Shown here: positions 6,813-26,044 of the stretch, one piece after another
Layout: the number at the start of each line of letters is the position of its first letter
Numbering within the stretch: the stretch's first letter is position 1
Assembly: GCA_964510095.1 (NCBI GenBank)
Contig: CAZEAE010000001.1
Coordinates: 232,551-296,550, forward strand
From: an uncultured Elusimicrobia bacterium
Lineage (GTDB): Bacteria > Elusimicrobiota > Elusimicrobia > UBA1565 > UBA9628
DNA length: 64,000 nucleotides
Reading direction: 5' to 3'
Program-made: the position numbers and the translations under genes
The notes under the pieces: generated by a model
The model's input: only the letters and a program-made list of their open reading frames with translations
Database searches by the model: none
Told to the model about the DNA's origin: nothing

Positions 6813-6818
6813 CCGACG

Positions 6819-8255
6819 CTATCGCTTGATCTTGCGCTCGGTCTGCTCGATGAGCTGGCGCGTCCTCAAAGACGGGCTCACCTCGAAGGCTTTCTTGAAG
6901 AATTTAAGCGCGTAAGGCGCGTCGCCCTCGGCCAAAAGGCACTGGCCCAGGCCGACGTAAGCGTCGGCCACGTTCAGGTCGCTGAGCCCGAGTGAGCCCG
7001 CCAGCTTCAGGCCTTCCGTGTAGAAGCCTTTCGCCTTGCGCACGTCGCGCTCGGCAAGCGCGATGGTTCCCTGGCGCTCGTAATACAGCACGCGCCGGCG
7101 GTCTTCGGGCGCCAGCATCGCCTCGGCCAGCTCCAGCTCCGCGCGCGCGTCCGCGAACTGCTTCGCGTCGATCAGGCGCCGGGCCTTGGCGAAATGGCCC
7201 TCGGCGGTCTCTTCACCCTTGACCGGCTTGGCCTCCTTGGGCACATAAGCCTCCGTCCTCGTCCCCCAATCCACCTTCGGGGGAGGCTCGCGCCGAGGCT
7301 CGACTTTTTCCGGGATCGGCGCGTCTTCCTCGGGCGAAGGCTCATGGCCATCGTCGTGGCCGCCCCAGCGGAACGTGACGCTGGCGCGATGCGTCAGCCC
7401 CAGGTCCCCGTAGGGAGCGAAGGCGTAGTCGATCGAGAAAGACCGCCAGCCCCAGCCCACGCCGCCGGTGATGCCGATATCGGTGTCATTGGCCCCATTG
7501 AAGCCCAGACGCATCGTCATGGGCTTGAGCAGGACGACTTCCACGCCCGCATGCGCCTTCAAGCGGTCGGTGCGCCCCTTGGTCAGGTCGACGGCCACCG
7601 TCGCGCTGTCGAAGGCGTACGCCGCGCCGACCCGGCCGCTCAACGGCAGCTTCTCCTTGTCCCGGATGAAGCGCACGTCAGGCCCCACGTTCTGGATCGC
7701 CGCGCCCAGGGTGAAGCGCGGCGCCGGCGGCACCGTAAGCATCACGCCCGCGTCGCCGGCGAAGGCCGAGGCTTTCACGTTGTCGTTGGTCTCCTGGATG
7801 AACTTCCCGGCCACGCCCAGGCTGAGCGCTCCGAAGAACGTATGGCCATAACCCGCCGCCACGGCCAGGTCGTCGACACGGAACTTGCCCAGCGCGCCGT
7901 CCTTGGAGGCGTAGGTCGTCCGGGGGATGTTGCCGAAGCTCAGGTAGTTGAGGTTGAGCCCCAGGCCCTGCCTCAACGCCAGCCCCATGTACTCGTGGTT
8001 GATGCCCTCCACGTAGGAGTTATGCATCATGGTGACCTCATGCCGGGTGACCCGGCCCAAGCCGGCCGGGTTGTAGAGCAGCGCGTTGGCGTCCGTCGCC
8101 AAGGCCGTGTAGGCGCCGCCCAAGCCGACCGCCCGGGCGTTGCCGTCCAGGAACAGGAAGTCGAAGGGCTCGGCCCCGGCCGAGGCCGCGCCGTGAGCCC
8201 AGCCGGCGGAGCCGGCTGCCCACAGACCGAGCCAAAGGGCCAGTGTCTTCTTCAT
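6819..8255 (-). CDS. Outer-membrane beta-barrel of the FadL/TodX/PorV superfamily, fused to a C-terminal TPR domain
   Basis: A signal peptide is followed by the motif GLGGAYTALATDANALLYNPAGLG, which matches the FadL/PorV N-terminal signature G.G.A...A.DA....NPA.L. The barrel ends in an aromatic residue (FRW). The last ~140 aa hold TPR-like repeats. The ATG overlaps the stop codon of the giant gene (ATGA). Confidence 0.65.
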   Translation of the reverse strand: MKKTLALWLGLWAAGSAGWAHGAASAGAEPFDFLFLDGNARAVGLGGAYTALATDANALLYNPAGLGRVTRHEVTMMHNSYVEGINHEYMGLALRQGLGLNLNYLSFGNIPRTTYASKDGALGKFRVDDLAVAAGYGHTFFGALSLGVAGKFIQETNDNVKASAFAGDAGVMLTVPPAPRFTLGAAIQNVGPDVRFIRDKEKLPLSGRVGAAYAFDSATVAVDLTKGRTDRLKAHAGVEVVLLKPMTMRLGFNGANDTDIGITGGVGWGWRSFSIDYAFAPYGDLGLTHRASVTFRWGGHDDGHEPSPEEDAPIPEKVEPRREPPPKVDWGTRTEAYVPKEAKPVKGEETAEGHFAKARRLIDAKQFADARAELELAEAMLAPEDRRRVLYYERQGTIALAERDVRKAKGFYTEGLKLAGSLGLSDLNVADAYVGLGQCLLAEGDAPYALKFFKKAFEVSPSLRTRQLIEQTERKIKR

Positions 8256-11200
8256 CGGATGATCGAAAGCCTCTTGATGATGCTCTTCTGCCCGGGCGAG
8301 GCGATCACGGCGAAATAGCCGCCCGTGGCCAATTCCCGCCCATCCTCGTTGCGCGCGTTCCACTGCAGCCGGCCGCCGCTGTTGGCCGAGCTGAACTGGG
8401 CGGCCAGCTTCCCGCTGACCGTGAAGACCTTGATCGTGACGGCCGCCGGCAGGTTGTCGAAGACGATGCCCGAGTTCACGTTGCCCGGCGAGAAGGGACG
8501 GCCCTCATCGGGGTTGACGCCGTTGGGCTTGAAGGGCACCGGATAGACGCGCACGGTGTCCAGGTTGGCGGCGCCGGCCAGCGGGAAGGCGGCGAAGAAG
8601 CTGAAGTGGCGCGTCGCCCCGTAGACCGTGTGGTTGACCAGGTCGATCGTCGTCGTCAGGTCGGCCGTCCACTGGTTGGTCACGGTATCGAAGCTGTAGA
8701 GCTTAAGATCCTGAGCGCGCAGCGAGGTGCCGTCCAAGATGCCGTCGTCGTTGGCGTCGAGGTAGGTGAAGGTCAGGGTGGCCGAATTGCCGCCGGAGAG
8801 CAGCGTCTGGCCGTTGCCCAAGGTGATGCTCATCGAGATGCCGACGTCCTGCGTGCCCTCCGGGGCCGCGGCCGGCAGGACCGGGGAGTTGACGACCGAG
8901 ACCGTCGTCGAGGAGCCGCTCAAAGAGCCCGCCGGCAGGTCGATCTTCGTGACCAAGGAGCCGACGCCGGCTCCCGTGATCGCTTGCGGCGCACCGTTGT
9001 TGAGCACCTCCTCGCGCGTGATCAAGCTTCCCACCAGGCGCTCGCGCACGTCCCACCCCGCGGGGTCGACGACGACGGTCACCACCCCCGGCGTCGTATC
9101 GGAGGAATCAGAGATGTCGGCAGCCACCGCGCGCAGGTCATAGCTGGTGGCCGTCAAGCCGGTGACGTCCCAGTGCAGGAACCAAGGGGCCGACAGGTCG
9201 CCGTTGGTCTGCGTCGGCCCGGCCGGCACGACCGGGAGCCAGGCCGTGTCGCTGGATGCCTTGTATTGGAAAAGCACGCTCTTGGTCTGCGCATCCGTGC
9301 CGCTGAGCAGCTGCGCCGACACCGTGACGCGGTCGCCGGCGATGCGCTTTCCTGAGACGGGGGACTTGATCTGGGCCCGCACCGCCGACACCGACGCCGT
9401 CGATGATGCCGAGGCGTAGACGCCGGAGGTTTCTTCCACGCCGCAACGGTGCGCCGCCCGCAATGCGAAGAGATAGGTGGGGCTAGAGACCAGCACGCCG
9501 GTCGTATATGAGGTCTCAGTGGAGGTGAAGACCGCCGCCGGCGTGACGAAGTCGACCGCGCCCGTGCCCGCGTCGTAATACAGCTTATAGGCGGTGATGC
9601 CTTCCGTAGGTGAAGCCGTCCATGACAGGGAGATGCGGTTGCCGGTCAGCGCGTTGGCCGCCAAGCCGCTGGGCGCCGAAGGCGTCGAGGCCAGGGTCAC
9701 GAAGGAGACCGTGCCGTCGAAAGCGGTGGCCACCGCGTCTCCATTGCGGTTGCGCACGCGCAGGTAATACGTCGTGCAGCCCAAGAGGCCCGTGTCGGCG
9801 TAGGCGACCACCGAGCTCAAAGACACCAAGGAGAAGGCGGCATTGTCGGTGGAATGCTGGACCTCGGCCAGCGTGTCCGCGGGGTTGGTGTTGAGGCTCC
9901 AGGAGATCGTCGCGCTGGTGCCCTGGACCAGGCTGATGACGCTGCCCGTAGGCGGCGCGGCTAGGGTATAAGCCGTCGCGGCCGCAGACAGCGGCCCTTG
10001 CCCGCTGACGTTGATGCCCGCGACGACCAAGCCGTAGGCGGTGTTGGTGGCCAGGCCCAGGTGCGAGAACGCCGCCGCCGCCGGATTGCCGATGATCGAC
10101 GCCGTGTTCGAAGCGGGGAAGACGTAGTAGCCGACGGCATCGGCCGCCGCGCCCCAAGTCCAAGAGATCGACGAGACGCCCAGGGCCGCGCCGACGGGCA
10201 CGCCCGGCTGGCCGGGGGCCGCCGGCTCCGTCCGGGTGCTGACGGTCGCGTCGAAGGTCGTGACGCCGCCGTTGTGGCCGAGCGTGCGCGCTTTGAAGTA
10301 ATAGGTGGTCGACGGCGACAGCCCCGCAGCCTCGGCGTCGGTCACGGAGACCAGCGTCTTGACGGGCGACGCGAACGCGGCGGAGACGTCGCGCCAGAGC
10401 TCGTAGACCGTGCCGGGGTCGGGGTTGCCCTGCGGCAGCCAGTCGAGCGAGACGGTCGAAGACGTCACGCTCAGGACCTCCGTCGCCGACGGAGAGAAGG
10501 CGGGGCTAGCCGCCGAGCCCAGATCCTTCACGGTGCTGGCGTTGGCCCCGCTGCGGGCCCGGACGCGGAAATAATAAGTCGTGTTGGCCAGCAGGTCGGC
10601 TCCGGCTCCGCCCGCGCCGAAGACCACTGAGAGGTTCAGCGTCGACGAGCTGAAGTTCACGGAGGCGAAAGCGTCGCTGGAAAGGTCGGCCTCGTAGCCG
10701 GTGCCCGGCGGGTTGCCGCCATCGGTCCACGAGACGGTGACGCTGGCAAAATCGACGGCGACCAGGCTGGGCGCGCCGGCGCCGGGCTCGGCGAGCAGCG
10801 TCGTCGTGGAAGGCAGCGTCGTCAATGATGTGAGCCGGCCGCCGTGGCCCAGGGCCCGGACCTGGAAGTAGTAGGTGGTGTTGGCGCTCAGGCCGGCGAA
10901 GGCCGCCGAGACGCCGTAGGTGCCGCTCGAGGCGTTCAAGGTCGAGAACTCGTCGGTGGAGACCCGCGCCTCGTAAAGCGTGCCCGAAGCGTTGCCATTG
11001 GCAGTCCAGTTCGCGGTGACCGCCGCCGGGCCGACGAAGGTCGGCGCCAAGGCCGCGGGCTCGGCCGGCAAGGTGGCAGTGGCGACGACGGCCACGAACG
11101 CCGTGGGCATCGAGGCGGCGTTGAAGGCCTGCACCCGCAAATAGTAAGTGGCGTTGGACTGCAGGGCGAAGAAGGTGGCTGAAGTCAGGAGCGTATTGCT

Positions 11201-14200
11201 GGAGGCGTTGACCGTGGTGAAGGCGTCGGTCGATATCTGGGCCAGATAGGGCGTCGCGGCCGGATTACCGCCCGCGCCCCAGGACAGCGCGGCCGAGGAC
11301 AACTCCACCGCGCTCAAGAAAGGCGCCGCCGGCGTGACGGCCAGGGTCGGCGCGGCGGCGGCTTGCGCGAACGGGCTCGACCCGCCCCAGCCCAGCGCCT
11401 GGACGTGCAGGTAATAGGTCGTGTTAGGGGCCAACGCCTGGAACGTGGCGGAAAGGGAGAGCGTCTGGCTGGAGAGATTCAGGGTCGTGAAGCCGTCCGT
11501 AGACAGCTGGGCCAAGTAGACCGTGCCGGCGGGGTTGCCGTCGGCCGACCAATCCAGCGTCATCGAAGACAGCGCTATCGCGCTCAGCGCCGGCGCGGCC
11601 GGCGAAGCGGGCAAGGTGAAGGCCGGCGCCGCCGCGATGAAGACGGTAGGAAGCTCGTTGCTGTTGAGGGCGCGCACCCGCAGGTAATAGGTGGTGTTGG
11701 GCACCAGCGCCTGGAAGGTGGCCGAGACGTTGAGCGTCTGGCTGGTGATGTTGAGGGTCGTGAAGGCGTCGGTGGACAGCTGGGCTTGATAGCGCGTGCC
11801 CGCCGGATCGCCCCCGGAGCCCCAGGTCAGGCTCATCGACGAGACGCTGGGGCCGGCGGCGGGCGCCGCCGGAGGAGCGGCCAGCGTGGACGTCGAGCCC
11901 AGCGCTACGTTGGCGCTGACATTGGAAGGCCCCACCGTGCGGACCTGGAAGAAATACGTGGTGTTGGGCGACAGCGCGCTCCCGGCGCCTCCGGAGCCGA
12001 AGAGGGTAGAGAGGCTCAGCGTCAGCGAGCTGAAGTTCACCGTGGCGAAGGCGTCGGTGGAGAGCTCGGCGGCGTAGAAGGCTCCCGGGCCGTTGCCGCC
12101 GCTGGTCCACTGCACGGCGGCGCTGGCGGTCTCGACGGCCAAGAACGAACCCGCGGTCAAGCCCGGCGGCAGGAGCAGCGTGGTGGTCGAAGGCAGCGTA
12201 GCGAAGCCCGTGACCTGGCCGCCATGCCCAAAAGCGCGCACCCGGACGTAGTAGGTCGTATTGGATAGCAGCCCTGCGAAGCCGGCCGCGGCATTGAAAG
12301 TCGCGCTCGACTCATTGAGCGTGGCGAAGGTGTCGGTGGAAAGCTCGGCCTCGTAGCGGGTCGTCAGCGGCGCGTTGCCGTTGGCCGACCAGTTCGCCTG
12401 GAAGGCCGCCGCGGCCACGGCGGAGGGCTGGGCTGAGACCGGCAGCGCCGGCGGCGTCGCGGTGGCCGGCCCCACGGCGAAGCCGGTGGCGGCAAACGCA
12501 TGAGAAAGCGCCTGCACGCGCAGGTAATAAGTGGCGTTGGACAGCAGGCCGAAGAAGGTGGCCGAGGTCAGCAGGGTAGAGCTCGAAGCGCTGAGCGTGG
12601 AGAAGTCGTCGGTGGAGAGCTGTACCGCAAAGCGCGTGCCCGCCGGGTTGCCGTTGGCGCTCCAAGAGAGCGCGGCCGAGGACAGCTCGACGGCCGTCAG
12701 TGAAGCCCCGGCCGGCGTCGCCGCCAGCGTCGGCGCGGCGGCGGCGGAAGCAAACGGGCTCAGCGCGCCGGCCCAGCCGATGGCTTGGACGCGCAGATAA
12801 TAAGTGGTGTTGGGCACCAGGGCCTGGAACGTGGCGGAGAGGTTCAGCGTCTGGCTGGAGGTATTGAGGGTCGTGAAGGCGTCGGTAGACAGCTGCGCCA
12901 GATACACCGTCCCGGCCGGATCGGCGTTGGCGAGCCAATCGACGGTCATCGAGGACAGGTTGATCGCCGCTAAAGAGGGGCTCGGCGGCGCCGGCAGCGT
13001 GACGGTCGTCATCGCCGCCGCGTAGCTCGAAGGCACGCCGTTGTTGTTGACGGCCCGCGCGCGCAGATAGTAAGTCGTGTTGGGGACCAGCGCCTGGAAC
13101 GTGGCCGACAAGCTCAGCGTCTGGCTGGAGGCATTGAGCGTGACGAAGACGTCGGTGGAAAGCTCCGCCTGATAGACCGTGCCGGCGCCGTTGCCGGCCG
13201 AGGTCCAGGTCAGGCTCATCGACGAGACGCTCGGCAGCGCCGCGGAGGCGGCGGGGACCGCCGCCAGCGTCGACGTCGACCCCAAGGGGATGTCGGCGCT
13301 GCTGTTGCCTCCGCCCGTGGCGCGCACCTGGAATTGATACGTGGTATTGGGAGACAGCGCCGGGCCGGCCCCGCCCGCGCCGTAGAGGACCGTGAGGTTG
13401 AGCGTCGACGAGCTGAAGTTCAGCGTGGCGAAGCCGTCGGTGGACACCTGGGCCACGTAGACCGTCGTAGGCCCGTTGCCGCCGCTGTTCCACTGCACCG
13501 CGACGCTGGACTGCTCGACGAGGAAGAAGGAACTCCCCGCCGGCACCGGCGGCAGCAGCAGGGTCATGGTCGCGGGCAGGACCGTGAAGGCGGAAAGCCG
13601 GCCGTCATGGCCCGAGGCGCGGACCCGGACGTAGTAGGTCGTGTTGGACAACAGCCCGCCGAAGCCGGCCGAGACGTTGAGCGTCGCGCTCGACTCCCGG
13701 AGCGTGGAGAAGGCGTCGGTGGATATCTGGGCCTCGTAGAGGGTCGTCAGCGGCGCGTTGCCGTTGGGCGACCAGTCGGCCTGCAAGGAGTTGGCCGTGA
13801 TCGCCGAGGGCGGCGCCGACGCCGGTTCGGCGGCCGAGGTCGCCGTGGCCGCCGCGACGGCGAAGGCCGTCTGCGCCCCCGCATGCGACCAGGCGGCCAC
13901 CCGCAAGTAATGCGTGGCGTTGGAGAGCAGCCCGAAGAAGGTCGCCGAGGTCAAGAGCGTCCGGCTGGAGGAGTTGACCGTGACGAAGGCGTCGGTGGAG
14001 TCTTGCGCCAGATATTCGGTGCCCGCGGGATTGCCGCCGGCCGCCCAGCTCAGCGCGGCGGAAGTCACCCAGACGCCGCTGACCGCAGGCGAGACCGGCA
14101 GGTCAGGGAGCGTCACGGAAGGACTCGCCGCCGCGAACCCGCCCGGCCCGTAATGACCGGAGGAGCGCACGCGAAGATAGTAGGTCGTGTTGGGCGTCAG

Positions 14201-20200: not shown

Positions 20201-23200
20201 TCCCGACTGAGAAAGCGGATGGAAATCCTCGACGCCGGCGCCGGGATCCTTCCAGCGCGGCAGCACCGCCGCGGAATTGGCGTCCTGGGAGCTGGCGGCG
20301 CGCCAGGCAGCAAGCAGGTCATAGCTCAAGAGCCCCCACAGGGCCGAGTTCGCGCTGTTGGAGCTGTAGAAGTCGTTGTAATCAGCGGAGAAGCCCGTCT
20401 GGCTGTCGCCGGAGACGGCGATCGTCGCCGAGGCGCCGGTCACCGAGAAGCTGCTGGAAAGGACGTTGTTCTTGACGGCCACGCCCGTCGAGCCGCTGTG
20501 CAGGCGCAGCACATAGGCGTTGGTCAGGGGAACCGAGGCCGCGCCATAGAGGTCGTTGAACTTCAACGTCGAGTTTACCGCCCCCGCCAGAGAGACCGCC
20601 TCGAAGCCGCCCGCGCTCAACACGTCGGGCTGGGAGATCCGGTTGTGGTCGACGACCAATCCGGCGACGCTCCTGGCGTGGAGGCCGTAGGCGGTGAAGG
20701 CGCCCATCGAACCCGCGGCGCGGTAATAGATCCCGTTGTTCTGGATCGTCGCCCCGGTGGCCAGGCCGTCGAGGTAGATGCCGTAGGTGTCGTAAGCCGC
20801 CGACAGCGTCGGCAGGACCGTGTTCGACGCGATCCAGAGCTGCGTCCCCGCTTGCTGGGTGGCGGCGTAAACGGCGTAGCGGCCGCCTTGGAATACGTTG
20901 GTGGAGAGGACGATCCGGCCCTTGTTGCCGTCCGCGAGGAACAAGGCCCGTCCCTGGGCGCCGCCTGAGACCGTGGACGAGGAGAGGCTGAGGTTGACGC
21001 TGGTGCTGGAGAGCACCAAGCCGTCTCCCGCGGCGATAGTGACGGCCAAGACGCTGCCCCCGATGACCGTGCCGGTCGAGCCCGAGACGTAGACCGCCGT
21101 CGAGCCCTGGATGTAGGAGCCGAGGATGGTGTCGGAGGAAGAGTTTTGGACATAGAGTCCGTAGCCCGTCCCATTGGAGGCCATGGTGCTCATCGAGATC
21201 ACCGTGTTGGTGTTCAAGGCTAGGTAGGCGCCATGGCCATTGGCGCTGTAGGCGTATATCTGGCTGAACGAGTTGCCGGAGCAGCCTTGGACATCCAGCG
21301 CGGCGGACGACGCGTAGATGCGCGCGTTGGTGACGGTGTTGCTGGGCGAGGCGTTGAAGGAAAGGCCCACCTCCTGAGCGACCTGGATGTAGACGTCGGA
21401 GACCGTCGTATGGTGGTTGCCGCCCCAGGCCCAAAGGCCGTAGGCGCCCGCGATGAAGGTGCTGGCGCTGACGGAGGTATAGTTGGCGCCCTCATCGAGC
21501 CCCAGCGCCCAGCCGGCGCCCATGTTGCGGAGGAAAGAGCCGGTGATCGCCGTGCCGCTGCTCCACTGGGCTCCGATCACGTCTACGGCGGAGCTGTTGG
21601 TGACGCCGGTGCTGTAGGCGATCGTGTTGTAATCGGAGCCGACGTCCAGATATATCCCCAGCGCGCCGGACAGGTTCTGCACGTAGGAGCCCGTGACCGT
21701 ATTGCTGTCGGAGTGGCTCAAGTAGAGCACGGAGTTGGTTGTGGCCGCGCTCGCCGCATTCGAGACCATGGTGCTGAGGCTGATCGCGTTGTAGTCGGAG
21801 CCGGCGACCAGGCGGACGGCGGGGCCCGCCTGGCTCAGGAAGTAGGCGTTGGCCACCGTGTTGTTGTCGGCCGTGGAAAGAAAGAGCGCGCTGAAGCCGG
21901 AGCCGGCGGCGGAGGCCGTGCTGTAGAGGATCGTGCTGCCCAAAGAGGCGTTCAAGCGCAGGCCGTCGGCGCTTTGGACGGTGATGCTGCTGTCGGCGAC
22001 CGACGACCAGCTGCTCACCGCCACTCCCGCCGTCCAGATCTTGCCGCCGGAATCGACGCTGACCCTGGCCAGCGTCACATAGGCCGAGGAAGCGTAGACC
22101 CCGTAAGCCACCGTGTTGGTGGTGATGATGGCCATGTTCGTGATCGTCACCGAGGCGTTGGCCAGATAGAAGGCGGCGGTGGACCCCGCCGGCGGGTTTA
22201 TGACCGCCGGACCGGCCTGGGAGGGGTCGGCCGTGACGAAGCTCAGGCGATGATCGTTCATCGCCAGGCCCGACACGCTCACCTGCTCGCTGTAGGTCTG
22301 GGTGTCGCGGATGACCACGCAGGAGTCGACGGCCAGGGAGCCGCCGAAGGAGGCCAAAGCGGAGGCGATCGTCGTGAAGGCGTAACCGGTCTTGGCCACC
22401 TCGGCGGCGACGGCACAGCCGAGGGGCAGGCCCAAGGGCGTGACCACGGAGCTGATCGACACGAAGTTCGGCGCCCCCCTCCAGTTGAGGCCGCCCACGC
22501 GCAGGTAGTAGGTCGTCAGCCCGCTCAAGCCCGACACCGTCAGCGTGCTCAAGGCGGCGTTCGGCGTGGAGGATGAGAAGATCAGCCCCGTGTAGGTCGG
22601 AGAGGTGGAGGCTTGGAGCAGGTAGCCTTCCGCCGTCTTGGAAGAGGCGTCCGGCGGGCTCGATGGCAGCGCAAACCAGTTGGCGGTCACGCTCGCCCCG
22701 TTGACCGCGTAGACGGCGGCCGCCAGCACGGGCTTGCTCAGCGTGCCGCTGTCGCCCAGGACCGTGAAAGGCCCCCCCGCCGAGGTCGACACCTGCAGGT
22801 AGTAGCTGGTGTTGGGGAGCAGCGACACGGCCCCGCCGAAGGTGGCGAAGAGGTTGAGCGTCGTCGAGCTCTGGTTGCCGGCGAAGACGTTGGGCCAAGG
22901 CGCGCTGGAGAGGTTCGCGGTGTAGCTCAGCCCCGGCGGGAAGCTCGAGTCCCAATGGACCGTCACGCTGGTGGCCCCGATCGCCGTCCAGCTGGAGGCG
23001 CTGATCACGCCGAAGACCGGGAAGGTCCAATTCAAGTTGTTGCCGCGGTCCAAGCTCGAGGCCGCGGAGATGGCGCCGCCGCCGCTGGAGTCGATGTCCT
23101 TCACCGCCGTGAAGCTGACGTCGGAGAAGACCGCCGTCATCTTGCCGCGCGTCCCGTCGGAGCTGCTCCTGATCGTCTGCCTCGTGCCCGCCGCCTGGCC

Positions 23201-26044
23201 GTTCAACACCAGGCTGGTGACCTGCATCGCCGAGCCCAAGGAGTCGAAGACCAGCGTCGTCGAGGGCTGCGTGGCGATGAAGATGCCGACCGGGACCTCC
23301 GGCAGCGTGAAGGTCGAAGACGTCTGCACGTAGAGGTTGGCGAGCGCGGTCGCGTCGCCCTCGCCGGTGGTGTAGAAGCGCTGAGGCGAGGTGCCCGCGA
23401 TCACGGTCGTGCTGAGAGAGGAGTCCAGGTAGCCGTTGGCCAGGACGATGTTCTGGTGGAAATACTGGTAATGACTTCCCGCCGTGTGGCTCCCGGACAA
23501 GACGGTGAAGTTGCCGCGCACCTCCAGGTCGGACAGCAGGGTCTCCATGACGCCCGCGGCCGCGAGCTTGTTGATGACCAAGTGGTTGAACCGGGCCGGC
23601 CCGGCGGTCAGGCGTTTGATCTTCGACACCCCCCCGCCGGTGAAGACGACCGTGCTGCCCGCCACCGTGCTCGTCGTCCTCATGTCGCCCACGAGCCAGT
23701 CGCCCGTGACCGCCAGCGCGCGCCCGTTGAGGTCGAGCATGGCGGAGGAGCCGGCGTCGAAGGTCGCGCCGCTGGAGATCGACAGGTCGACCGTGAGCGT
23801 GACGGTGCTGGCGTAGCCGCCCGTGATGCTCATGCTTGCCAGCGTCACCGCCAGGTCCCAGGCGCAGGGCGACGTCGGCGTGGTGTTGCCGAAGACGACG
23901 GAATCGCCCGCGGCGGGCGCCCCCGACGGGACCCAGTTCGCGGAAGCCGATGCCGCCGAGGAGCCCCCGCCGTAGCTCCAGGTCTTCAGCGCGCCGCCGC
24001 CCCCGCCGATGAACGTCCAGTTCGTGTTGCCGCCGCCGTCGACGCTGTTGCTCGCGGTGACGGCGACGCCCAAGCTGGAGTCGATATCGCGCGCGTAGAC
24101 GAAGGCGAGCGTGGGCGCCGAGCCCAAGGTGAGCTGGGCCGCCACGCCGTCGGAGCCGCCCCGCAGCTGGACGCGCGACGAGGCGGCCAGGCCGCTGACG
24201 GTCATGCTGGCGATTTCCGTCACGCTTCCGCTCTCGAAGAGCACCGTCGCGTTGGGCTGCGTGGCGACGAAGACCTGGATATCCGACTGCACCAGGCTGA
24301 TCACGGCCGGGGTCTGGATGAACAAGGCCCCGATGTTGGTGACGCTGCCCACCGCGGCCCCCACGGCGGGGCCCAAGGACTGAGGCTGGCTGCCGGTGAA
24401 GACCAGCGTGCTCACCGAGACGTCGACGGCGCCGTCGCCGACGAAGAACCCGCCGTGCAAGCGCTGGGTATGGGCGCCGACCAGGTAAGCGCCGGTCGAA
24501 GCGGTGAAGGTGCCGAAGGTCTCGATGTCCGACAGCAGCATCAGCGTCGCGCCGCTGGCCTTGGCGGCGACCAGACTGTTGAAAAGAGCCGGCCCGCCCG
24601 TGGTGCGCAGGATATGAGAGGTGCCGGCGCCGTAGAAGGTCACGCTGCTGCCGGCCACCGTGCTGGTCGTCTTGACGCCGCCTGCGGCCCAGTCTCCCTG
24701 GACCGACAGGTTGCGCCCGTTGAGGTCGAGCTTGGCCGAGGAGCCCGCGTCGAGCAAGACGCCGCTGCTGACGGTCAGGTCGACCGTCAGCGTGACCGTG
24801 CTGGCGTAAGCGTTGGTGACGCTCATCGACGTCACGACGACGGAAAGATCCCATGTGCAGGGCGCCGTCGGCGTCGTGCTGCCGAAGACGACGTAGTCTC
24901 CCGCGCCGGGAGGCCCGCCGGCAGCCCAATTGCCGGCGTTGGAAGCCAACGCGGAGCCGCCTCCCCAGCTCCAGAACCGCGTCGCGCGAGGGTCGCCGCC
25001 GGAGAAGGTCCAGCCCGTGTTGCCGCCGCCGTCGACGCTGCTGGTGGCGGTGATGGCCGTCCCCTGAGAGACGTCGATGTCGCGGACGAACGCGAAGCGC
25101 ACCGTGGGAGCCGTGGTGATGACCTGCGCCGCCTGGCCGGCGACCAGGCTCTGGATCTGGATGCGCGAGGTCGCGGCCAGACCGCTGATCGTCATGCTGG
25201 TGATGCTGATAGGGTCGATCGGCGTCTGCAGGATCAAGGTCGAGCTGGGCTGGGTGGCCACAAGGACGGCCACCTGCACGCCCGGCAGCGTGATCGCGGC
25301 CGGGGCCTGGATGAAGATCGCGCCGATGAAGGTCGCGCCGCCCTCGCCATTGCTGGCCAGCGCCTGCGGCCGGTCGCCCACGAAGACCAGCGTGCTGACC
25401 GACACGTCCAGGAAGCCTTCGGTCAGCAGGAGGCCGCCGTGGAGATGCTGGCTATGCTTGCCGGCCACATGGTTTCCGGTCAAGATGGTGAAGAGGCCGA
25501 AGACCTCTATGTCCGACAGCAGCTGCTCGGTCTGACCGGCCGTCTTGTCGATGACGAGATAGTTGAACCGGGCGACCCCGCCGCCGGTCCGCGTTATGTT
25601 CGAGGTCCCCGTCCCGTAGAACGTCACCGTGCTGCCGGCCACCGTGCTCGTCGTCTTCATGCTGCCTACGGTCCAATCGCCCTGGACGGAGAGGTTGTGA
25701 CCGTTGAGGTCGAGCATGGCCGAGGAACCGCCGCCGAGCCAGACGCCGCTGCTGACGGTCAGGTCGACGGTGAGGGTCACGGTGCTGGCATAGGACCCCG
25801 ACACGCTCATGGAAGCGATGGTCAGCGCCAGGTCCCAGGTGCAGGGTGAAGTCGGGGTGGTGTTGCCGAAGAGGACGCCGTCACCATCCGTGGGAGCGAC
25901 GCCGCCGATCCAGTTGGCGGGGTTGGAAGCCAGGGCCGTGCCGCCGGCGTAGCTCCAGGTCAGGTCGGCCGCCTGCGCGGCCGGGCTCACCATGAGGGCG
26001 AGGAGGAATGCTCGTGCCAACGACTTATAAGAGGAAGTGCTCAT
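8252..26044 (-). CDS. Giant (5,930-aa) secreted modular adhesin-like protein. It contains N-terminal repeats, parallel beta-helix (PbH1/pectate-lyase-like) modules, a long fibronectin-III-like domain array, an Ig-like region and a T9SS-type C-terminal sorting domain (Por_Secre_tail / FlgD-Ig-like)
   Basis: A single uninterrupted 17.8-kb ORF with an N-terminal signal peptide (AAQA-AD). Repeated NTV...GS..NT beta-helix rungs are present. There are about 27 units of ~93 aa with a conserved W, Y..Q.STD.F and TTYY.RV (FN3-like). The C-terminal ~95 aa (VRVYPVPFKP...GGYFAVI...KSIIKRLSIIR) fit the T9SS CTD consensus. Confidence 0.85.
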   Translation of the reverse strand: MSTSSYKSLARAFLLALMVSPAAQAADLTWSYAGGTALASNPANWIGGVAPTDGDGVLFGNTTPTSPCTWDLALTIASMSVSGSYASTVTLTVDLTVSSGVWLGGGSSAMLDLNGHNLSVQGDWTVGSMKTTSTVAGSTVTFYGTGTSNITRTGGGVARFNYLVIDKTAGQTEQLLSDIEVFGLFTILTGNHVAGKHSQHLHGGLLLTEGFLDVSVSTLVFVGDRPQALASNGEGGATFIGAIFIQAPAAITLPGVQVAVLVATQPSSTLILQTPIDPISITSMTISGLAATSRIQIQSLVAGQAAQVITTAPTVRFAFVRDIDVSQGTAITATSSVDGGGNTGWTFSGGDPRATRFWSWGGGSALASNAGNWAAGGPPGAGDYVVFGSTTPTAPCTWDLSVVVTSMSVTNAYASTVTLTVDLTVSSGVLLDAGSSAKLDLNGRNLSVQGDWAAGGVKTTSTVAGSSVTFYGAGTSHILRTTGGPALFNSLVAAKASGATLMLLSDIETFGTFTASTGAYLVGAHTQRLHGGFFVGDGAVDVSVSTLVFTGSQPQSLGPAVGAAVGSVTNIGALFIQTPAVISLVQSDIQVFVATQPNATVLFESGSVTEIASMTVSGLAASSRVQLRGGSDGVAAQLTLGSAPTLAFVYARDIDSSLGVAVTASNSVDGGGNTNWTFIGGGGGALKTWSYGGGSSAASASANWVPSGAPAAGDSVVFGNTTPTSPCAWDLAVTLASMSITGGYASTVTLTVDLSISSGATFDAGSSAMLDLNGRALAVTGDWLVGDMRTTSTVAGSTVVFTGGGVSKIKRLTAGPARFNHLVINKLAAAGVMETLLSDLEVRGNFTVLSGSHTAGSHYQYFHQNIVLANGYLDSSLSTTVIAGTSPQRFYTTGEGDATALANLYVQTSSTFTLPEVPVGIFIATQPSTTLVFDSLGSAMQVTSLVLNGQAAGTRQTIRSSSDGTRGKMTAVFSDVSFTAVKDIDSSGGGAISAASSLDRGNNLNWTFPVFGVISASSWTAIGATSVTVHWDSSFPPGLSYTANLSSAPWPNVFAGNQSSTTLNLFATFGGAVSLLPNTSYYLQVSTSAGGPFTVLGDSGTLSKPVLAAAVYAVNGASVTANWFALPSSPPDASSKTAEGYLLQASTSPTYTGLIFSSSTPNAALSTLTVSGLSGLTTYYLRVGGLNWRGAPNFVSISSVVTPLGLPLGCAVAAEVAKTGYAFTTIASALASFGGSLAVDSCVVIRDTQTYSEQVSVSGLAMNDHRLSFVTADPSQAGPAVINPPAGSTAAFYLANASVTITNMAIITTNTVAYGVYASSAYVTLARVSVDSGGKIWTAGVAVSSWSSVADSSITVQSADGLRLNASLGSTILYSTASAAGSGFSALFLSTADNNTVANAYFLSQAGPAVRLVAGSDYNAISLSTMVSNAASAATTNSVLYLSHSDSNTVTGSYVQNLSGALGIYLDVGSDYNTIAYSTGVTNSSAVDVIGAQWSSGTAITGSFLRNMGAGWALGLDEGANYTSVSASTFIAGAYGLWAWGGNHHTTVSDVYIQVAQEVGLSFNASPSNTVTNARIYASSAALDVQGCSGNSFSQIYAYSANGHGAYLALNTNTVISMSTMASNGTGYGLYVQNSSSDTILGSYIQGSTAVYVSGSTGTVIGGSVLAVTIAAGDGLVLSSTSVNLSLSSSTVSGGAQGRALFLADGNKGRIVLSTNVFQGGRYAVYAATQQAGTQLWIASNTVLPTLSAAYDTYGIYLDGLATGATIQNNGIYYRAAGSMGAFTAYGLHARSVAGLVVDHNRISQPDVLSAGGFEAVSLAGAVNSTLKFNDLYGAASVPLTNAYVLRLHSGSTGVAVKNNVLSSSFSVTGASATIAVSGDSQTGFSADYNDFYSSNSANSALWGLLSYDLLAAWRAASSQDANSAAVLPRWKDPGAGVEDFHPLSQSGRWNPATGSFAADAQTSQTIDRGDPLLGAGLEANPNGGRANQGSYGLTAEASQSYLDLPAGCGAGYNVKQDGSKDYTTIQAAVTALSFLGTDSCVVVRDTQTYNEQVTVQNLANNGFRLTIMADPGFISSAPVINPPTASTAAFLVINDSVTLQHLTVITTNTVAYGVWSSSAYVTLSSVNVDSGGKIWTAGVAVSSWSSVSYGSITVQSADGLRLNYAIRTTVQYSTVAVSGDDFHALYLTASDSNTVTGSYFQHSAAGYGAFLTNGSDYNVISQSSLACNHASALALLVIASDNNTVTGSVISNLQGQGVGMNTGADYNTFSQSVLSANSATAAAFFLSDCDHNTVVDSTIRNTAGDGAILVTGSDYNAIIRSTMTSAAVAADLYPLYIGESSSNTIVDSYIQGSTAAVIHGSTATVIGGSVLIATHTAGSALWMSAGSLDLSLSTSTLVGGAQGAGLFVDEGNSGRLLISTNSFPAAARYAVYAATQQPGTQLWISSNTVLPSLSASRDTFGIYLNGLVSGATIQNNGIFYRSAGSMGAFTSYGLYAQSAAGLLIDRNRFGAPGMITAGSHEAVKFSGTTNSSFKSNDVHVAGAGLTNAYGLSVLSGSTGVKVKDNVFLSSTAVIGSSATISVSADSQPGFVSDYNSYYSSNAYSTGFWGAAAYALTSAWTAGSGQDANSLDGQHPYWADPSAGVEDYHPRSPRGRYDPGTGGFVVDGVLARSIDAGDPAEAVGLEPSPNGSRLNAGSYGGTAEASKAAPAPTGQIAGAVDLSSITLTFGAVASDGYNAQAATDPGFASVISSATANAASTQLSPQGLALNTTYYVRVGALYGSAVVYPLGAAVSTPTLAAVPAEGSEAVVFTSSIIVSWAANGNPAGTLYSAQLSTDAFVTINESSRTMGSAAAFLNLLPNTTYQARVQAINHAGLATDFGASLATATWAGDLQGVSLYGVFATSVTVNWVPLALSPPDASSKTSSGYVLVASTAADFSGTQFSSATSNVALSTLSLTGLSNATYYLRLGALNWNGSANYSFVAATHTASSLPPGCLTGFNVKQDGSMDHVTLQGALNAMPPGLTGDACLVIRDALTYSEQVTIQGFSNNGYRLRIMADPTFVSSAPVFNPPAGSTAAFLVFNDSVTLQQISIITTNTVAYGVWSSSAYVALSSVSVDGRAGIWSAGVRVSSGSSIERSSITVLAGHGLVITGPWSVVSYATSAVVGAGDAALVLDGASSSTITNGRFYGNFGGAQLKNGAHDNVISLSTMTGNGGLSISVGSYSNIITQSYAAGFVSGGAFIGGNYNTLSQSVITGNSSIDVNGAFNTLTGLSIPSPGGYGLVLSGGADYNTVTLSTISVLRLTGGSYNTVSRSLLSAPVITGGSIGNLVTLSTITAGLQFLEGSSNTVSSCYIEGSTAVIVAGATGTVVSSNFLAATSALGSGLWLRSGSVNLSMSSNTVSGGAQGAGIALEAGAGRLILSTNTIRTGAQYGIRVAAQGAGAQVWITSNTVLPTLSTSLDTYGIHLNGLITGATIQDNGVYYRTALAIPGVTAYGLYALGSSGLVIDHNRFNEPGKITSGSHEAVSLWATTNSSLLFNDLHATGANFNNAVLLSVRSASTGVQVKGNVFLSSFSVSGASATIEVSADSQSGFVSDYNDFFSSAVLNSGTWGASSYDFLAAWRSGTGRDLNSLAAQPLWNDASGGVEDFHPRSQRGRWDPAAAGFVVDGVTALTIDAADPAAAAGLEASPNGARANLGSYGQTLEASKSAPTAAPVLLGVSGSSVTLSWALAASDGYSAEVSSVADFSSGIVSSVTTNGSSTQLSPQSLLPNTTYTLRVGTLYGAVYNYAASGATATWAHPPVAAVFSVGLSSHGLSWGRNGNPEGTLYAVEQSTDAFLTLNASSWTLNAGATFFGLVSNKDYSLRVRALGHGGTATAFLTPSSSFTLTADPASTSTAVNLSSAVLTWSSPSNDVGTPYDAQVSTDDFATVNLTSATLSQSATFTALTPNTTYYLRVRSSGHYGPGGFAAASPSVTLPDLPVSPAVSGVWVTSAALSWAAGGNPAGTEYLAQDSTDAFVTVNSSSRTLLTSATFFGLLSNATHYLRVAAWSHAGAQTAFAVAAATATSAAEPASAPPSAITANSLQADWSPNGNAPLTTLYEAQISTDAFSTLRESSATLNVSAGFGGLLSNTTYYVRVRASGHDGRLSAFTVLPATMTLLLPPVPAGSSFFLVEQSSVAVQWNSGGNGPTTVYVAQVSTDGFATLNFSSSTLNLTVLYGAGGAGPALSPNTTYQFQVRATGGGNSSADIPLGSTSTLAAVPAASAALPSVSSMSLTWTSAGNGAGTVYQAELSTDVFVTLNASSQTLSLSATFQALVPNTTYYLRARAVNNNGVPSSYAAAMTTVTLPAPPSPSLAAINLSSMTVDWLANADPAGTVYLAQLSTDAFTTLNTSSQTLNLSATFQALVPNTTYYLRVQAIGWAGALSPFASAAAAPTLAATPAGASLTAVELSSAALSWSANGNPAGTRFAVQLSTDDFSTLSASSSTLLTSATFFGLLSNATYYLRVQALSHAFAATGFAVGPATATPPALPVSAQPSAVAAAAFQANWSANGNAPLTTRYEAELSTDTFATLNESSATFNAAAGFAGLLSNTTYYVRVRAFGHGGQVTGFATLPSTTTLLLPPGLTAGSFLAVETASAAVQWTSGGNGPGAFYAAELSTDAFATVNFSSLTLSLSTLFGSGGAGSALSPNTTYFFQVRTVGPSNVSANVALGSTSTLAAPPAAPAAGPSVSSMSLTWGSGGDPAGTRYQAQLSTDAFTTLNITSQTLNVSATFQALVPNTTYYLRVRALNSNELPTVFIAAAPAFTLPASPAAPALSAIALSSMTLDWSADGNPAGTVYLAQLSTDGFTTLNLSSQTLSLSATFQALAPNTTYYLHVQALGWGGSSPFAQAAAAPTLAVTPAAPFLSAVELSSAALSWGAGGNPAATPYLAQISTDAFTTVNASSNTLLTSATFFALQSNATYYLRVQAFNAASMPTAFVAVVATATLPAEPAALAPTFVGPAAVTANWTANGNASGTLYEARVSTDEFSTLNASSGTYGVSAAFAGLSANTTYYFQVRALGHGGRLTSLTTLPSTTTLLAEPGAGAPSLVAVDFASVTVSWTDGGNPPGTGYEADLSSDAFASVNFSSSTLNLSVVFGAGGAGADLLANTTYYFRVRARSGANASTVKDLGSAASPAFSPSATEVLSVTSSTVSLDWLPQGNPDPGTVYELWRDVSAAFASPVKTLVSVTDAEAAGLSPSTTYYFKARTLGHNGGVTTFDATVSTRTEPAAPGQPGVPVGAALGVSSISWTWGAAADAVGYYVFPASNTASIIGNPAAAAFSHLGLATNTAYGLVVAGINVSGQGPLSAAATAYTLAAPPTGSVISLVQGTSATISWSLNTNPADTLAEVQHSTDNAAFSLVSLSSVVAYADTGLLGCTTYYLRVRNRNGDAVATAFDGTVSFVTLASTPSAPSGLAANALTGNRISLSWTASPTEGITAYKLYYDAGTGAVDFVTPAAVFTSTETSYTTGVLVSSPTYLFALRAAHRCGVEETSGVYASASSTASVSAVRAQIKSPVSGKRIAGDRVTVSAQLLSGTDAQTKSVLFQYKASSDTAWLPVVPAGPTQTNGDLSAPWFLHWDVTGLTATSYDLRAVAADISDSSDTTPGVVTVVVDPAGWDVRERLVGSLITREEVLNNGAPQAITGAGVGSLVTKIDLPAGSLSGSSTTVSVVNSPVLPAAAPEGTQDVGISMSITLGNGQTLLSGGNSATLTFTYLDANDDGILDGTSLRAQDLKLYSFDTVTNQWTADLTTTIDLVNHTVYGATRHFSFFAAFPLAGAANLDTVRVYPVPFKPNGVNPDEGRPFSPGNVNSGIVFDNLPAAVTIKVFTVSGKLAAQFSSANSGGRLQWNARNEDGRELATGGYFAVIASPGQKSIIKRLSIIR
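8255..8560 (-). other. C-terminal sorting domain of the giant protein (T9SS CTD-like / FlgD Ig-like fold)
   Basis: The sequence is YP.PF.P......F.......V.I.V.T.SG......L.......G.Y...W....E.G...A.G.YF. It ends in a basic stretch, as Por_Secre_tail domains do. Confidence 0.6.
10100..14300. repeat. Higher-order tandem repeat of about 1.38 kb, about 3 copies, each encoding five FN3-like units, inside the giant gene. Boundaries are approximate
   Basis: Near-identical DNA blocks recur at about 10.14, 11.52, 12.88 and 14.26 kb. At the protein level a five-domain block (e.g. GTVYLAQLSTDAFTTLN...TTYYLRVQAIGW) is reiterated. Confidence 0.7.
14800..23000. repeat. Tandem repeat of about 2.9 kb, 3 copies, each encoding a ~960-aa module (FN3-like pair plus PbH1 parallel beta-helix). 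Boundaries are approximate
   Basis: Highly similar DNA occurs at about 16.73, 19.69 and 22.09 kb (gacgccgtaggccacggtgttggtcgtgatga...). The protein modules begin GC..G(F/Y)NVKQDGS and contain VVIRDTQTY..QV and VDSGGKIWTAGVAVSSWSSV. Confidence 0.7.
23000..26000. repeat. Tandem repeat of about 1.0 kb, 3 copies (~330-aa N-terminal modules of the giant protein). Boundaries are approximate
   Basis: Similar DNA at about 23.80, 24.79 and 25.78 kb (gtgctggcgta...ctcatcg...caggtcccaggtgcaggg...). The protein repeats begin TWSYGGGS.ASNA.NW..GG.P.AGD.V.FGNTTPTSPC.WDL. Confidence 0.65.

Follow-up and report, generated by a model that had tools for sequence, protein, structure and literature searches.

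General features of the locus

The window, i.e., the whole 64-kb stretch of DNA analysed here, carries on its minus strand a 17.8-kb ORF encoding a giant protein and, overlapping its end, a gene for a predicted outer-membrane beta-barrel, hereafter the partner. The partner gene was absent from the earlier reading of the giant. The architecture of the giant was derived from self-comparison, Pfam and in-house HMMs. The features of the locus are listed below in window coordinates, with amino acid (aa) positions referring to the giant.

8252–26044, minus strand: giant ORF, from ATG (26044) to TGA (8252), 5,930 codons, one stop
25970–26044, minus strand: putative Sec-type signal peptide, aa 1–25 (MSTSSYKSLARAFLLALMVSPAAQA followed by AD), read from the sequence
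23006–25966, minus strand: three N-terminal repeats of ~330 aa, aa 27–1013, from self-comparison
22436–23005, minus strand: FN3 pair, aa 1014–1203, from the in-house profile
20042–22435, minus strand: beta-helix module M1, aa 1204–2001 (798 aa), Pfam Beta_helix PF13229
17921–20041, minus strand: beta-helix module M2, aa 2002–2708 (707 aa), directly abutting M1
17075–17920, minus strand: FN3 triple, aa 2709–2990, from the in-house profile
14912–17074, minus strand: beta-helix module M3, aa 2991–3711 (721 aa)
9365–14911, minus strand: array of 20 FN3 domains, aa 3712–5560, Pfam fn3 and in-house profile
8570–9364, minus strand: pre-CTD region of 265 aa, aa 5561–5825, no family match
8255–8569, minus strand: C-terminal domain (CTD), aa 5826–5930, predicted beta-sandwich of the FlgD_ig / T9SS-CTD kind
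8252–8255, minus strand: ATGA start/stop overlap of the giant and partner genes, from the sequence
6819–8255, minus strand: partner gene, 478-aa predicted PorV/PorQ-family outer-membrane beta-barrel, NF033709 match

The giant protein has 5,930 aa and, as computed from its translation, a mature mass of ~598 kDa, a pI of 4.8 and a D+E+K+R+H content of just 9.6%. Charged residues are very scarce in it, and Ser, Thr, Ala and Gly abundant. The initial annotation had the domain order broadly right, while its module sizes and FN3 counts required revision and the beta-helix nature of the N-terminal repeats had been missed.

Integrity of the giant gene

The giant gene is real and intact. As initially described, a single 17.8-kb ORF is present, with one frame running from 26044 to 8252 on the minus strand. 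Its G+C content at the three codon positions is 0.56, 0.57 and 0.91, and GC3 lies between 0.86 and 0.96 in each 300-codon block. A frame of 17.8 kb with such uniform GC3 far exceeds chance, indicating that the ORF is genuine. It is overlapped by antisense ORFs and by same-strand ORFs in the +2 frame of up to 1,145 aa. In all of them the GC-rich position is codon position 1 (0.88–0.94), and a Pfam search gave no match for any. For these reasons they were rejected as genes, in agreement with the earlier view that the antisense ORFs are artefacts of composition.

Logan contigs from other sequencing runs are 100% identical to window positions 4822–16757 and 21961–27522, and the FN3 array at or below position 16757 is 100% identical to an independent contig (L006). 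An ENA contig matches positions 1–18255 with 4 mismatches, all outside the giant gene. The full-length protein is encoded on at least three contigs, where calls of 5,913 and 5,922 aa differ solely in the start codon. A 5,627-aa version in the gene calls of the ENA contig was considered as a length variant and rejected, as it starts at position 2 of the record and is cut by the contig end. The longest exact DNA repeat inside the gene is 41 bp. Orthologues of 5,463 and 5,670 aa share the architecture of the giant.

Except for the start call, the giant is identical to P0041 and P0191 (NCBI MEK7857683.1), and it is already public from an Elusimicrobiota MAG (GenBank MEK7857683.1) as a 'right-handed parallel beta-helix repeat-containing protein'. 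No paper dealing with the architecture of the giant, with its CTD or with the coupled PorV/Q-TPR gene turned up in full-text literature searches. More than 41,000 proteins in UniProtKB exceed 5,000 aa, and Elusimicrobiota were noted as enriched in them (PMC11573180). The giant belongs with the huge (>5,000 aa) Elusimicrobiota proteins catalogued in that study, and ranking it among the largest bacterial proteins, as was done initially, is an overstatement.

Signal peptide, N-terminal repeats and FN3 domains

The putative signal peptide, as read from the sequence, has K7/R11 in its n-region, an AFLLALMV core and an AQA/AD cleavage site. The homologue P0042 has an equivalent leader ahead of the same 'A(D)(L/K)TW' start of repeat 1. 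Automatic gene callers start at M18 or L9, and the leader is thereby lost. The giant appears to possess the N-terminal Sec signal peptide expected of a T9SS cargo.

Three tandem repeats (aa 27–354, 355–685 and 686–1013) follow and are 53–59% identical to each other. Their number and size of ~330 aa are those first reported, and each is predicted by a high-confidence model to be a right-handed beta-helix. A single-sequence search with the repeat retrieved almost nothing (1 weak match). Its relatives were found with a three-repeat profile searched against a representative library, and the family has 537 matches and no Pfam or NCBIfam model, so that the repeat defines a new beta-helix domain family. 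This domain is common to other giants with different stalks and is presumed to form the distal tip of the fibre.

The Pfam fn3 model (PF00041) matches the giant in 11 stretches above its gathering score (326.7 bits, E = 1.5e-99). With an iterated in-house profile, 25 FN3 domains (2+3+20) were counted, with a period of ~91 aa in the array. The C-terminal array had been thought to hold ~27 domains; 20 were found, which brings the total to 25, not ~29. A super-repeat of five FN3 domains is present in the array (aa 3991–4451 and 4452–4912), with 69% identity at the protein level and 73.5% at the DNA level.

Beta-helix modules

The Pfam Beta_helix model (PF13229; cut-off 25.9) matches the N-terminal half of the giant with 100.1 bits (E = 1.3e-28) and the C-terminal half with 57.2 bits, and M1 alone scores 60.1 bits. 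The modules are predicted with high confidence to adopt a three-stranded right-handed helical fold of ~25–30 rungs, with the rung number varying between modules. M1 and M2 are 55% identical. The three helices had been recognised initially at a size of ~960 aa, which does not hold, as they measure 798, 707 and 721 aa; the spacing from M2 to M3 is ~990 aa and includes three FN3 domains. M2 contains a Cys8-Cys40 cap, an RDxxTYxEQ motif, a DRNR...ND patch, an Asn ladder with a period of ~24.5 residues and a ~90-aa tail modelled with low confidence.

Among 36 homologues, the conserved polar residues are those of the cap disulfide, the RDxxTYxEQ motif, the Asn ladder and one DHNR...ND patch. An acid/base cluster like those that define PL, GH28, CE8 or C5-epimerase sites is not conserved across these homologues. 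No catalytic family model of Pfam or NCBIfam matches the giant, which shows neither the family models nor the catalytic constellations of PL1/PL6/PL9, GH28, CE8 or AlgG/AlgE, and the DPHD motif of epimerases is absent from the helices. The sole enzyme sequence match covers 50 cap residues of a pectinesterase. The search that scores enzymes gives equal scores to non-enzymes, namely NosD, the Vag8 passenger, the PfbA adhesin and pertactin. The 'polysaccharide-active heads' proposed initially are thus unsupported. A structural or binding role is more likely for the helices than an enzymatic one. They may bind glycans, and the conserved DHNR...ND patch could be an active site.

Pre-CTD region and CTD

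The 265 aa before the CTD (aa 5561–5825), initially labelled Ig-like, have no significant match in Pfam or the PDB, so this label has no family or structure match behind it. The region ends in T(P/R)HFSxFA, a motif kept in 6 of 7 cassette cargos (see below).

The CTD reads VRVYPVPFKPNG...WNARN..G..LATGGYFAVI...KRLSIIR up to the stop codon. It matches the C-terminal end of the NCBIfam PorZ model (positions 668–757) with an E value of 1.3e-7. A CTD profile matches the PorZ CTD (5m11, residues 658–758; E = 1e-9), the PorU CTD (6za2, residues 1082–1153; E = 0.009) and also FlgD. Among the seven cassette CTDs, FlgD_ig matches all (best E = 8.9e-8), CHU_C six and Por_Secre_tail (PF18962) four (best E = 4.7e-4). 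The CTD of the giant itself does not reach the curated TIGR04183, PF13860 or PF13585 cut-off. Its TIGR04183 score of 15.9 bits (E = 0.0097) falls short of the 23 bits set for a type-A CTD, and its match to CHU_C (type B) is weak (E = 0.013). These profile-level matches place the CTD, in a broad sense, in the T9SS-CTD / FlgD_ig beta-sandwich superfamily. Judged by profile comparison, it is closest to the PorZ CTD, with the PorU CTD next.

The partner barrel and the two-gene cassette

The partner is predicted to carry a signal peptide of its own, a linker rich in Pro, Glu and Lys and, at its C-terminus, a TPR domain (TPR_12 match). It matches the PorV_fam model NF033709 over positions 4–325 of 326 with 145.8 bits (cut-off 90, E = 2.2e-42). 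Against the PorQ and PorV equivalogs it scores 95 bits (cut-off 220) and 51 bits (cut-off 250), respectively. By these profile scores the partner is a member of the PorV/PorQ family and not an orthologue of PorQ or PorV, since neither equivalog cut-off is reached. A total of 332 homologues were retrieved, and all organism-named ones are from Elusimicrobia. Many Elusimicrobia members carry the TPR fusion.

The ATGA overlap suggests that the giant and its partner are translationally coupled. In all seven hand-checked loci, a CTD-bearing FN3, beta-helix or Kelch protein (1,207–5,930 aa) is encoded immediately upstream of a PorV/Q(-TPR) homologue. The ATGA junction was found in 4 of 6 hand-checked related loci, and the gene pairs of the other two overlap by 1 nt. 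For a scan of genome contigs, a single PorV/Q-TPR protein query found nothing and an alignment-based scan succeeded. Among 80 GTDB-species loci, a CTD-bearing ORF lies directly upstream of the barrel gene in 62 (42 of 50 in Elusimicrobia); the remaining loci are mostly cut by contig ends. The distance to the barrel gene is −8 to +25 nt for 56 of these 62 cargo ORFs, and the ATGA overlap occurs in 34 of the 80 loci, mostly in Elusimicrobia. Cargo and barrel genes are therefore adjacent (7/7 and 62/80 loci) in the way known for type-B CTD proteins and PorP/SprF.

Several cassettes are present per genome, and the cassette also occurs in other uncultivated phyla. Family members keep the CTD and swap the heads, with forms such as Nrep4-FN3x42, Nrep10-FN3x2 and single beta-helix proteins. 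The giant is the largest cassette member seen in this analysis.

ExbB-ExbD-TonB genes lie directly upstream in the window. They were rejected as part of the cassette, as tblastn of the three encoded proteins against 86 other cassette loci gave no match while a positive control worked. Synteny of the HEAT-repeat genes with locus L002 was suspected and is unsupported by the same tblastn. Promoter/terminator and tRNA scans around the cassette yielded nothing useful.

A proposed model and its alternatives

We consider it fairly probable that the giant forms a ~600-kDa fibre on the cell surface of an Elusimicrobiota bacterium from groundwater and is the cargo half of a cargo/anchor cassette. The initial suggestion of a surface fibre or adhesin gains support from the Sec-type signal peptide, the 25 FN3 domains, the PorZ/PorU-like CTD and the coupled PorV/PorQ-family barrel gene. 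A role in adhesion is suggested by the architecture. In the proposed model, the signal peptide would take the giant through Sec, and the ~105-aa CTD would be recognised by the barrel encoded by the overlapping gene, as family membership, the conserved gene pairing and T9SS precedent suggest. The barrel would retain the CTD, and hence the whole protein, at the outer membrane, much as PorZ is held by PorQ, and type-B-CTD adhesins such as SprB by PorP/SprF-like barrels. Through its periplasmic TPR domain, the barrel may attach the complex to some partner in the periplasm. The 25 FN3 domains would form the stalk, the three NosD/PbH1-type helix modules rigid segments, and the three N-terminal beta-helices the distal tip, which would most likely bind a surface, a polymer or another cell. 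An FN3 domain spans ~3.5 nm and a helix rung 0.48 nm; from these textbook values, a fully extended fibre is estimated to be of the order of 150 nm long.

The outer membrane may be crossed through a T9SS-like translocon or by something else. Neither the 64-kb window nor the ~20-kb flanks examined around related loci showed a T9SS core component (SprA/Sov, PorK/L/M/N or GldK/L/M/N, PorT, PorU). Published surveys assign T9SS to Bacteroidota or the FCB group, with Elusimicrobiota not among them (PMC11611037, PMC12398890). Full-text literature searches for Elusimicrobia in connection with T9SS or PorV brought up nothing relevant. To our knowledge, PorV-family (UPF0164) barrels are also present in spirochaetes, which lack T9SS; PorV-family membership alone is therefore no proof of CTD binding.

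Several other readings were weighed against the anchored fibre. Were the modules a lyase, hydrolase or epimerase on a stalk, the giant would be a tethered depolymerase rather than an adhesin. We regard this as unlikely, given that non-enzymatic helices score equally well, that catalytic family matches and DPHD are missing, and that the central rungs offer just the Asn ladder and structural residues, with no conserved acidic/basic cluster. The differing rung numbers of the modules and the D+E+K+R+H content of 9.8% in the helix body also speak against an enzyme. About equally doubtful is a role without a specific ligand, as part of a structural envelope or S-layer-like coat or as a spacer against neighbours or particles. 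Such a function would suit the several paralogous cassettes per genome, the low charge and Ser/Thr/Ala/Gly-rich composition, the repetitive FN3 domains that make up most of the length, and the general enrichment of Elusimicrobiota in huge proteins (PMC11573180). The conserved, triplicated beta-helix domain at the distal end, however, recurs on giants with differing stalks and resembles a functional head more than filler.

It is a good deal less probable that the CTD and the PorV/Q barrel form a T9SS-independent export device, in which the TPR barrel accomplishes both passage and anchoring in a two-partner manner. The strict coupling of one cargo to one barrel, the ATGA overlap, a phylum not listed with T9SS and the TPR fusion in many Elusimicrobia members would fit it; the Bacteroidota PorV and PorQ lack a TPR fusion, as far as we know. 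PorV-family barrels, however, are small and FadL-like and are not known to pass a folded 600-kDa cargo, and a conventional translocon may lie elsewhere in the genome. An assembly chimera, or a decaying pseudogene held open by GC-rich composition, might be suspected from repetitive sequence in short-read metagenomes and from the shadow ORFs of >1,000 aa, which show that composition alone keeps frames open. This is extremely improbable in view of the 100% identity to independent assemblies, the full-length copies on at least three contigs, exact repeats of at most 41 bp, and uniformly high GC3 in the called frame only; moreover, segments of the protein match families or fold confidently, and the 5,463- and 5,670-aa orthologues keep the same architecture. 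A broader and rather speculative idea, which we think unlikely to be correct, is that Elusimicrobiota and several candidate phyla possess a modular 'one cargo, one PorV/Q barrel' system independent of the canonical Bacteroidota T9SS, i.e., an ancestral minimal T9SS or a distinct display pathway. If true, proteins of up to ~600 kDa would be anchored at the surface, and perhaps exported, with no more than a CTD of the FlgD_ig type and a PorV/Q barrel bearing a TPR domain.

Comparison with known systems

The proposed anchored fibre and its partner resemble SprB-SprF of F. johnsoniae and PG1035-PorP of P. gingivalis, in which a repetitive giant with a C-terminal sorting domain also adjoins a barrel gene; SprB has ~6,500 aa. 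Unlike in SprB-SprF, the barrel is a PorV/PorQ-family member (NF033709), not a PorP/SprF one, and has an added TPR domain, the CTD is FlgD_ig/PorZ-like with a weak CHU_C match, the genes overlap by ATGA, and the host is a member of Elusimicrobiota. SprB and other type-B CTD adhesins bind cognate PorP/SprF barrels, often encoded next to them, and several paralogous cargo/barrel pairs per genome are a further feature shared with type-B-CTD/PorP-like pairs (PMC9143113, PMC12618676).

The likeness to PorZ-PorQ lies in the CTD, which is closest to that of PorZ, and in the partner, which scores higher against PorQ than against PorV. PorZ, in contrast, is a 758-aa beta-propeller A-LPS carrier and no fibre. 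As far as we know, the genes porZ and porQ lie apart in P. gingivalis. PorQ is the barrel that anchors PorZ at the cell surface, and neither PorU nor PorZ has its CTD cleaved off (PMC10947112). With type-A CTD cargo (TIGR04183 / PF18962), the giant shares a signal peptide, a C-terminal beta-sandwich and a PorV-family partner, together with YPNPF-like, G.Y and K-hydrophobic end motifs in the CTD. It differs from this cargo in its sub-threshold score (15.9 bits against 23) and in having its own barrel per cargo, not one PorV for all; no PorU was seen in the 64-kb window or the flanks examined.

Very long repetitive fibres with an outer-membrane-protein anchor and a ligand-binding end, as proposed for the giant, are also known among T1SS RTX adhesins (LapA, SiiE, MpIBP) and T5SS proteins (FHA, HMW1, Hap). 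The giant departs from the RTX adhesins in having one GGxGxD in 5,930 aa and an N-terminal Sec-type leader. It has no Pfam or NCBIfam match to an autotransporter barrel or TPS domain, and its partner is of the PorV family and not Omp85/TpsB, which sets it apart from T5SS. The helices share 10–17% identity with the AlgE4 A-module, NosD, PfbA, autotransporter passengers and phage tailspikes. They lack the catalytic motifs of enzymatic PbH1/pectate-lyase-fold proteins, and compared with known PbH1 proteins the modules are longer (~25–30 rungs) and stand in tandem with FN3 domains.

Taken alone, the giant adds a further huge modular surface protein to those of a phylum known to abound in them. The new point is its apparent coupling to a PorV/PorQ-type barrel gene, a pairing that sequence comparison indicates is conserved across Elusimicrobiota. 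The cassette provides a testable handle on surface building in mostly uncultivated bacteria and on the origin of T9SS components, and it extends the cognate shuttle/anchor logic of Flavobacterium type-B T9SS substrates to another barrel family and to phyla outside Bacteroidota.

A giant gene with a single intact reading frame

The giant gene, which encodes the proposed cell-surface fibre, runs uninterrupted for 5,930 codons on the minus strand, from ATG 26044 to TGA 8252-8254. The G+C contents of codon positions 1, 2 and 3 are 0.56, 0.57 and 0.91, and position 3 remains at 0.86-0.96 in every 300-codon block (nineteen blocks), so the gene appears to be coding over its full length in the called frame. 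Other long ORFs overlie it, the longest on each strand being:

21492-24929, minus strand: same-strand shadow ORF, +2 frame, 1,145 aa, inside the giant gene
22613-25849, plus strand: antisense shadow ORF, 1,078 aa, inside the giant gene

The GC-rich position is codon position 1 in all of these ORFs and none has a Pfam family match; they were therefore rejected as genes. At 67% GC such spurious frames reach more than 1,000 aa, and a gene caller using length only would be misled. The initial annotation had described a single giant ORF, with antisense ORFs arising from composition; both descriptions are confirmed, with numerical corrections.

Exact-protein look-ups matched window proteins to groundwater metagenomes, one source being ENA contig Hain_H51_02um..., apparently from Hainich well H51. 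This contig has four mismatches to window 1-18255, none inside the giant gene. Logan assemblies from other sequencing runs share 100% identity over window 4822-16757 and 21961-27522, while 16758-21960 is covered by full-length records only, not by the short independent contigs retrieved. Records of the full protein come from three or more contigs, with calls of 5,913 and 5,922 aa that are 100% identical and differ solely in the chosen start; the 5,922-aa call is GenBank MEK7857683.1, [quoted passage not shown]. The ENA contig also has a 5,627-aa call, rejected as a shorter version because the contig end cuts the gene. The longest exact DNA repeat within the gene is 41 bp, making short-read collapse unlikely.

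The start at ATG 26044 yields a canonical signal peptide, and an equivalent leader is found in the homologue P0042. The public starts, M18 (5,913 aa) or residue 9 (5,922 aa), located within window 25993-26044 (minus strand), both drop the signal peptide, and predictors would wrongly class the database versions as non-secreted.

Domain architecture

The protein, encoded on the minus strand, is organized as follows:

aa 1-25: signal peptide
aa 27-1013: three repeats of ~330 aa, 53-59% identical
between these repeats and M1: two FN3 domains
aa 1204-2001: beta-helix module M1, directly abutting M2
aa 2002-2708: beta-helix module M2, back to back with M1
between M2 and M3: three FN3 domains
aa 2991-3711: beta-helix module M3
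aa 3712-5560: twenty FN3 domains
between the FN3 array and the C-terminal domain: 265-aa region
last 105 aa: C-terminal domain (CTD)

The domain order matches that first proposed, with smaller modules than the ~960 aa suggested and with 20 FN3 domains in the C-terminal array instead of ~27. The earlier label Ig-like is putative: the 265-aa region gave no match in a family search. The mature protein is ~598 kDa and acidic (pI 4.8), with very scarce charged residues. Within the FN3 array, five FN3 domains (~461 aa) form a super-repeat (aa 3991-4912; window 10309-13075, minus strand). Its first two copies share 69% amino acid and 73.5% DNA identity, and a third copy ~50%, indicating that the stalk grew by block duplication.

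The beta-helical units number six and come from two families. Neither Pfam nor NCBIfam has a model for the N-terminal repeat, and a single-sequence search finds almost no homologues; a three-repeat profile matches 537 proteins (E<=1e-3), many with lengths of 2,000-7,400 aa. M1, M2 and M3 share 51-55% pairwise identity. Modelled with 36 homologues, M2 is confidently predicted as a long right-handed beta-helix (pLDDT 86.4, pTM 0.83). Polar residues are conserved in the alignment at the RDxxTYxEQ motif and the Cys8-Cys40 pair of the N-terminal cap, along an asparagine ladder that repeats about every 24.5 residues and, over the last third, at a D(H/R)NR...ND patch. The two parts of this patch lie ~30 residues apart (M2 aa 505-537; window 18434-18529, minus strand) and are kept at equivalent positions in M1, M3 and closer homologues. 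It is the only conserved polar patch of the helix body and a candidate ligand or active site.

Polysaccharide-active heads had been suggested, with structure prediction and a catalytic-residue search as the check; the search found no conserved catalytic constellation. The DPHD motif is absent from the helices, the central rungs have no conserved acid/base cluster in the alignment including the 36 homologues, and lyase, hydrolase and esterase models match nothing in the protein beyond a 50-residue similarity of the cap to pectinesterase. Catalysis by the helices is therefore regarded as unsupported, though conceivable.

C-terminal domain and the conserved PorV/PorQ-family partner

The last ~105 aa match the CTD part of the PorZ model (E 1.3e-7) and, weakly, Por_Secre_tail, CHU_C and FlgD_ig. 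When seven related CTDs are combined into a profile, it matches the PorZ CTD (5m11, E 1e-9), the PorU CTD (6za2, E 0.009) and FlgD; each of the seven has a FlgD_ig match. The signature ...VRVYPNPFKPNG.NPDEG...WDARN..G.DVA.GGY.AVI...K..IIR* is common to five of six hand-opened cargos; the CTD of locus L002 diverges more (23% identical, terminus VIH*).

The main addition to the initial annotation is a conserved, translationally coupled partner gene directly downstream (6819-8255, minus strand), whose ATG at 8255 overlaps the giant's TGA as ATGA. The 478-aa product has its own signal peptide and a C-terminal TPR domain, and matches the PorV/PorQ family model over its full length (145.8 bits; curated cut-off 90). 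It scores higher for PorQ than for PorV, reaching neither equivalog cut-off. A total of 332 barrel-TPR homologues were detected, and every organism-named one is from Elusimicrobia.

Each of the six other loci opened by hand has a large gene whose end overlaps the barrel start codon, as ATGA in four and by 1 nt in two. The upstream proteins (1,207, 1,680, 1,834, 2,675, 5,670 and at least 1,749 aa) carry FN3, beta-helix or Kelch domains. When one genome per GTDB species was scanned with a profile, 415 relatives were retrieved; the best 80 of these were analysed. A CTD-bearing ORF (E 1e-59 to 1e-4) lies directly upstream of the barrel at 62 of these 80 loci; 56 of the 62 are within -8 to +25 nt, and 34 have the ATGA overlap. 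For the Elusimicrobia loci among them, the counts are 42/50 for the CTD-bearing ORF and 31/50 for the overlap, and most of those without such an ORF are interrupted at contig ends. Outside Elusimicrobia, the pair was found in MAGs labelled WOR-3, Stahlbacteria, Eisenbacteria, FCPU426, Lindowbacteria and Gemmatimonadota; there the genes usually do not overlap, and a ~10-nt spacer with a GGAGG-like site lies between them. Genomes carry several cassettes. Among the cargos, the heads differ and the CTD is kept (Nrep4-FN3x42-CTD, Nrep4-FN3x22-CTD, Nrep10-FN3x2-CTD and single-beta-helix-CTD, Nrep being the ~330-aa repeat). Across loci L016-L095, partners are ~450-490 aa with a C-terminal TPR or ~300-350 aa without it, both downstream of CTD-bearing genes.

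Neighboring genes

Other genes noted in the window include:

5388-6812, plus strand: trypsin-like serine protease (Trypsin_2, E 4e-30)
26147-26887, minus strand: TonB_C
26884-27276, minus strand: ExbD/TolR
27276-27911, minus strand: ExbB/TolQ
57524-59110, plus strand: tyrosine integrase with HTH_17

The complete ExbB-ExbD-TonB set (26147-27911) shares the strand of the giant gene and immediately precedes it, with a 102-nt gap between them. In 86 other cassette loci, tblastn matched none of the three proteins; the set was thus rejected as part of the cassette and is treated as unrelated. The protease gene is convergent with the barrel gene, 7 nt from its stop, and is also present on ENA and Logan contigs of the same population. 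In window 8-3818 (plus strand), successive small ORFs of 166-343 aa have N-termini resembling signal peptides; Pfam and NCBIfam gave no match to them. Some are paralogues: 549-1091 and 2787-3818 share 40% identity at their C-termini, and 1744-2244 and 2190-2771 share 30%. From the integrase onward (57524-64000), in what is probably a mobile element that has integrated, GC drops from ~0.66 to 0.53-0.58. The window as a whole yielded no tRNA genes.

Proposed display mechanism and comparison with known systems

The FN3/beta-helix architecture, T9SS/FlgD_ig-type CTD and barrel partner support the earlier proposal of a surface fibre but not that of polysaccharide-active heads. With FN3 domains of ~3.5 nm each and a helix rung of 0.48 nm, the extended protein would be on the order of 150 nm long. 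Two precedents suggest how it may be displayed. PorZ is anchored by PorQ, and the PorZ and PorU CTDs stay uncleaved (PMC10947112); cognate PorP/SprF-like barrels bind type-B-CTD adhesins including giant SprB, and the genes are often adjacent (PMC9143113, PMC12618676). By analogy, the giant would be exported through Sec, its CTD would be recognised by the cognate barrel, and the resulting complex may retain the fibre at the outer membrane; the N-terminal helices would make up the distal tip that binds the ligand. T9SS is assigned by reviews to Bacteroidota or the FCB group (PMC11611037, PMC12398890), and SprA/Sov, PorKLMN and PorU were not seen in the window or the available flanks of related loci. 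It is considered unlikely that the pair represents a CTD/PorV-type display pathway that is ancestral or independent of T9SS.

Elusimicrobiota are reported to be enriched in huge proteins (PMC11573180), and the giant is a huge modular surface protein of a kind already known, its sequence being public under a generic name. The barrels are already labelled "PorV/PorQ family protein" by NCBI, and a full-text literature search found no paper describing the cassette in Elusimicrobia. The cassette would work like the cargo/shuttle-anchor pairs of T9SS, but differs from them in its barrel family (PorV/Q with TPR instead of PorP/SprF), in its host phylum, and in its CTD, which is FlgD_ig/PorZ-like and falls under the type-A and type-B cut-offs.
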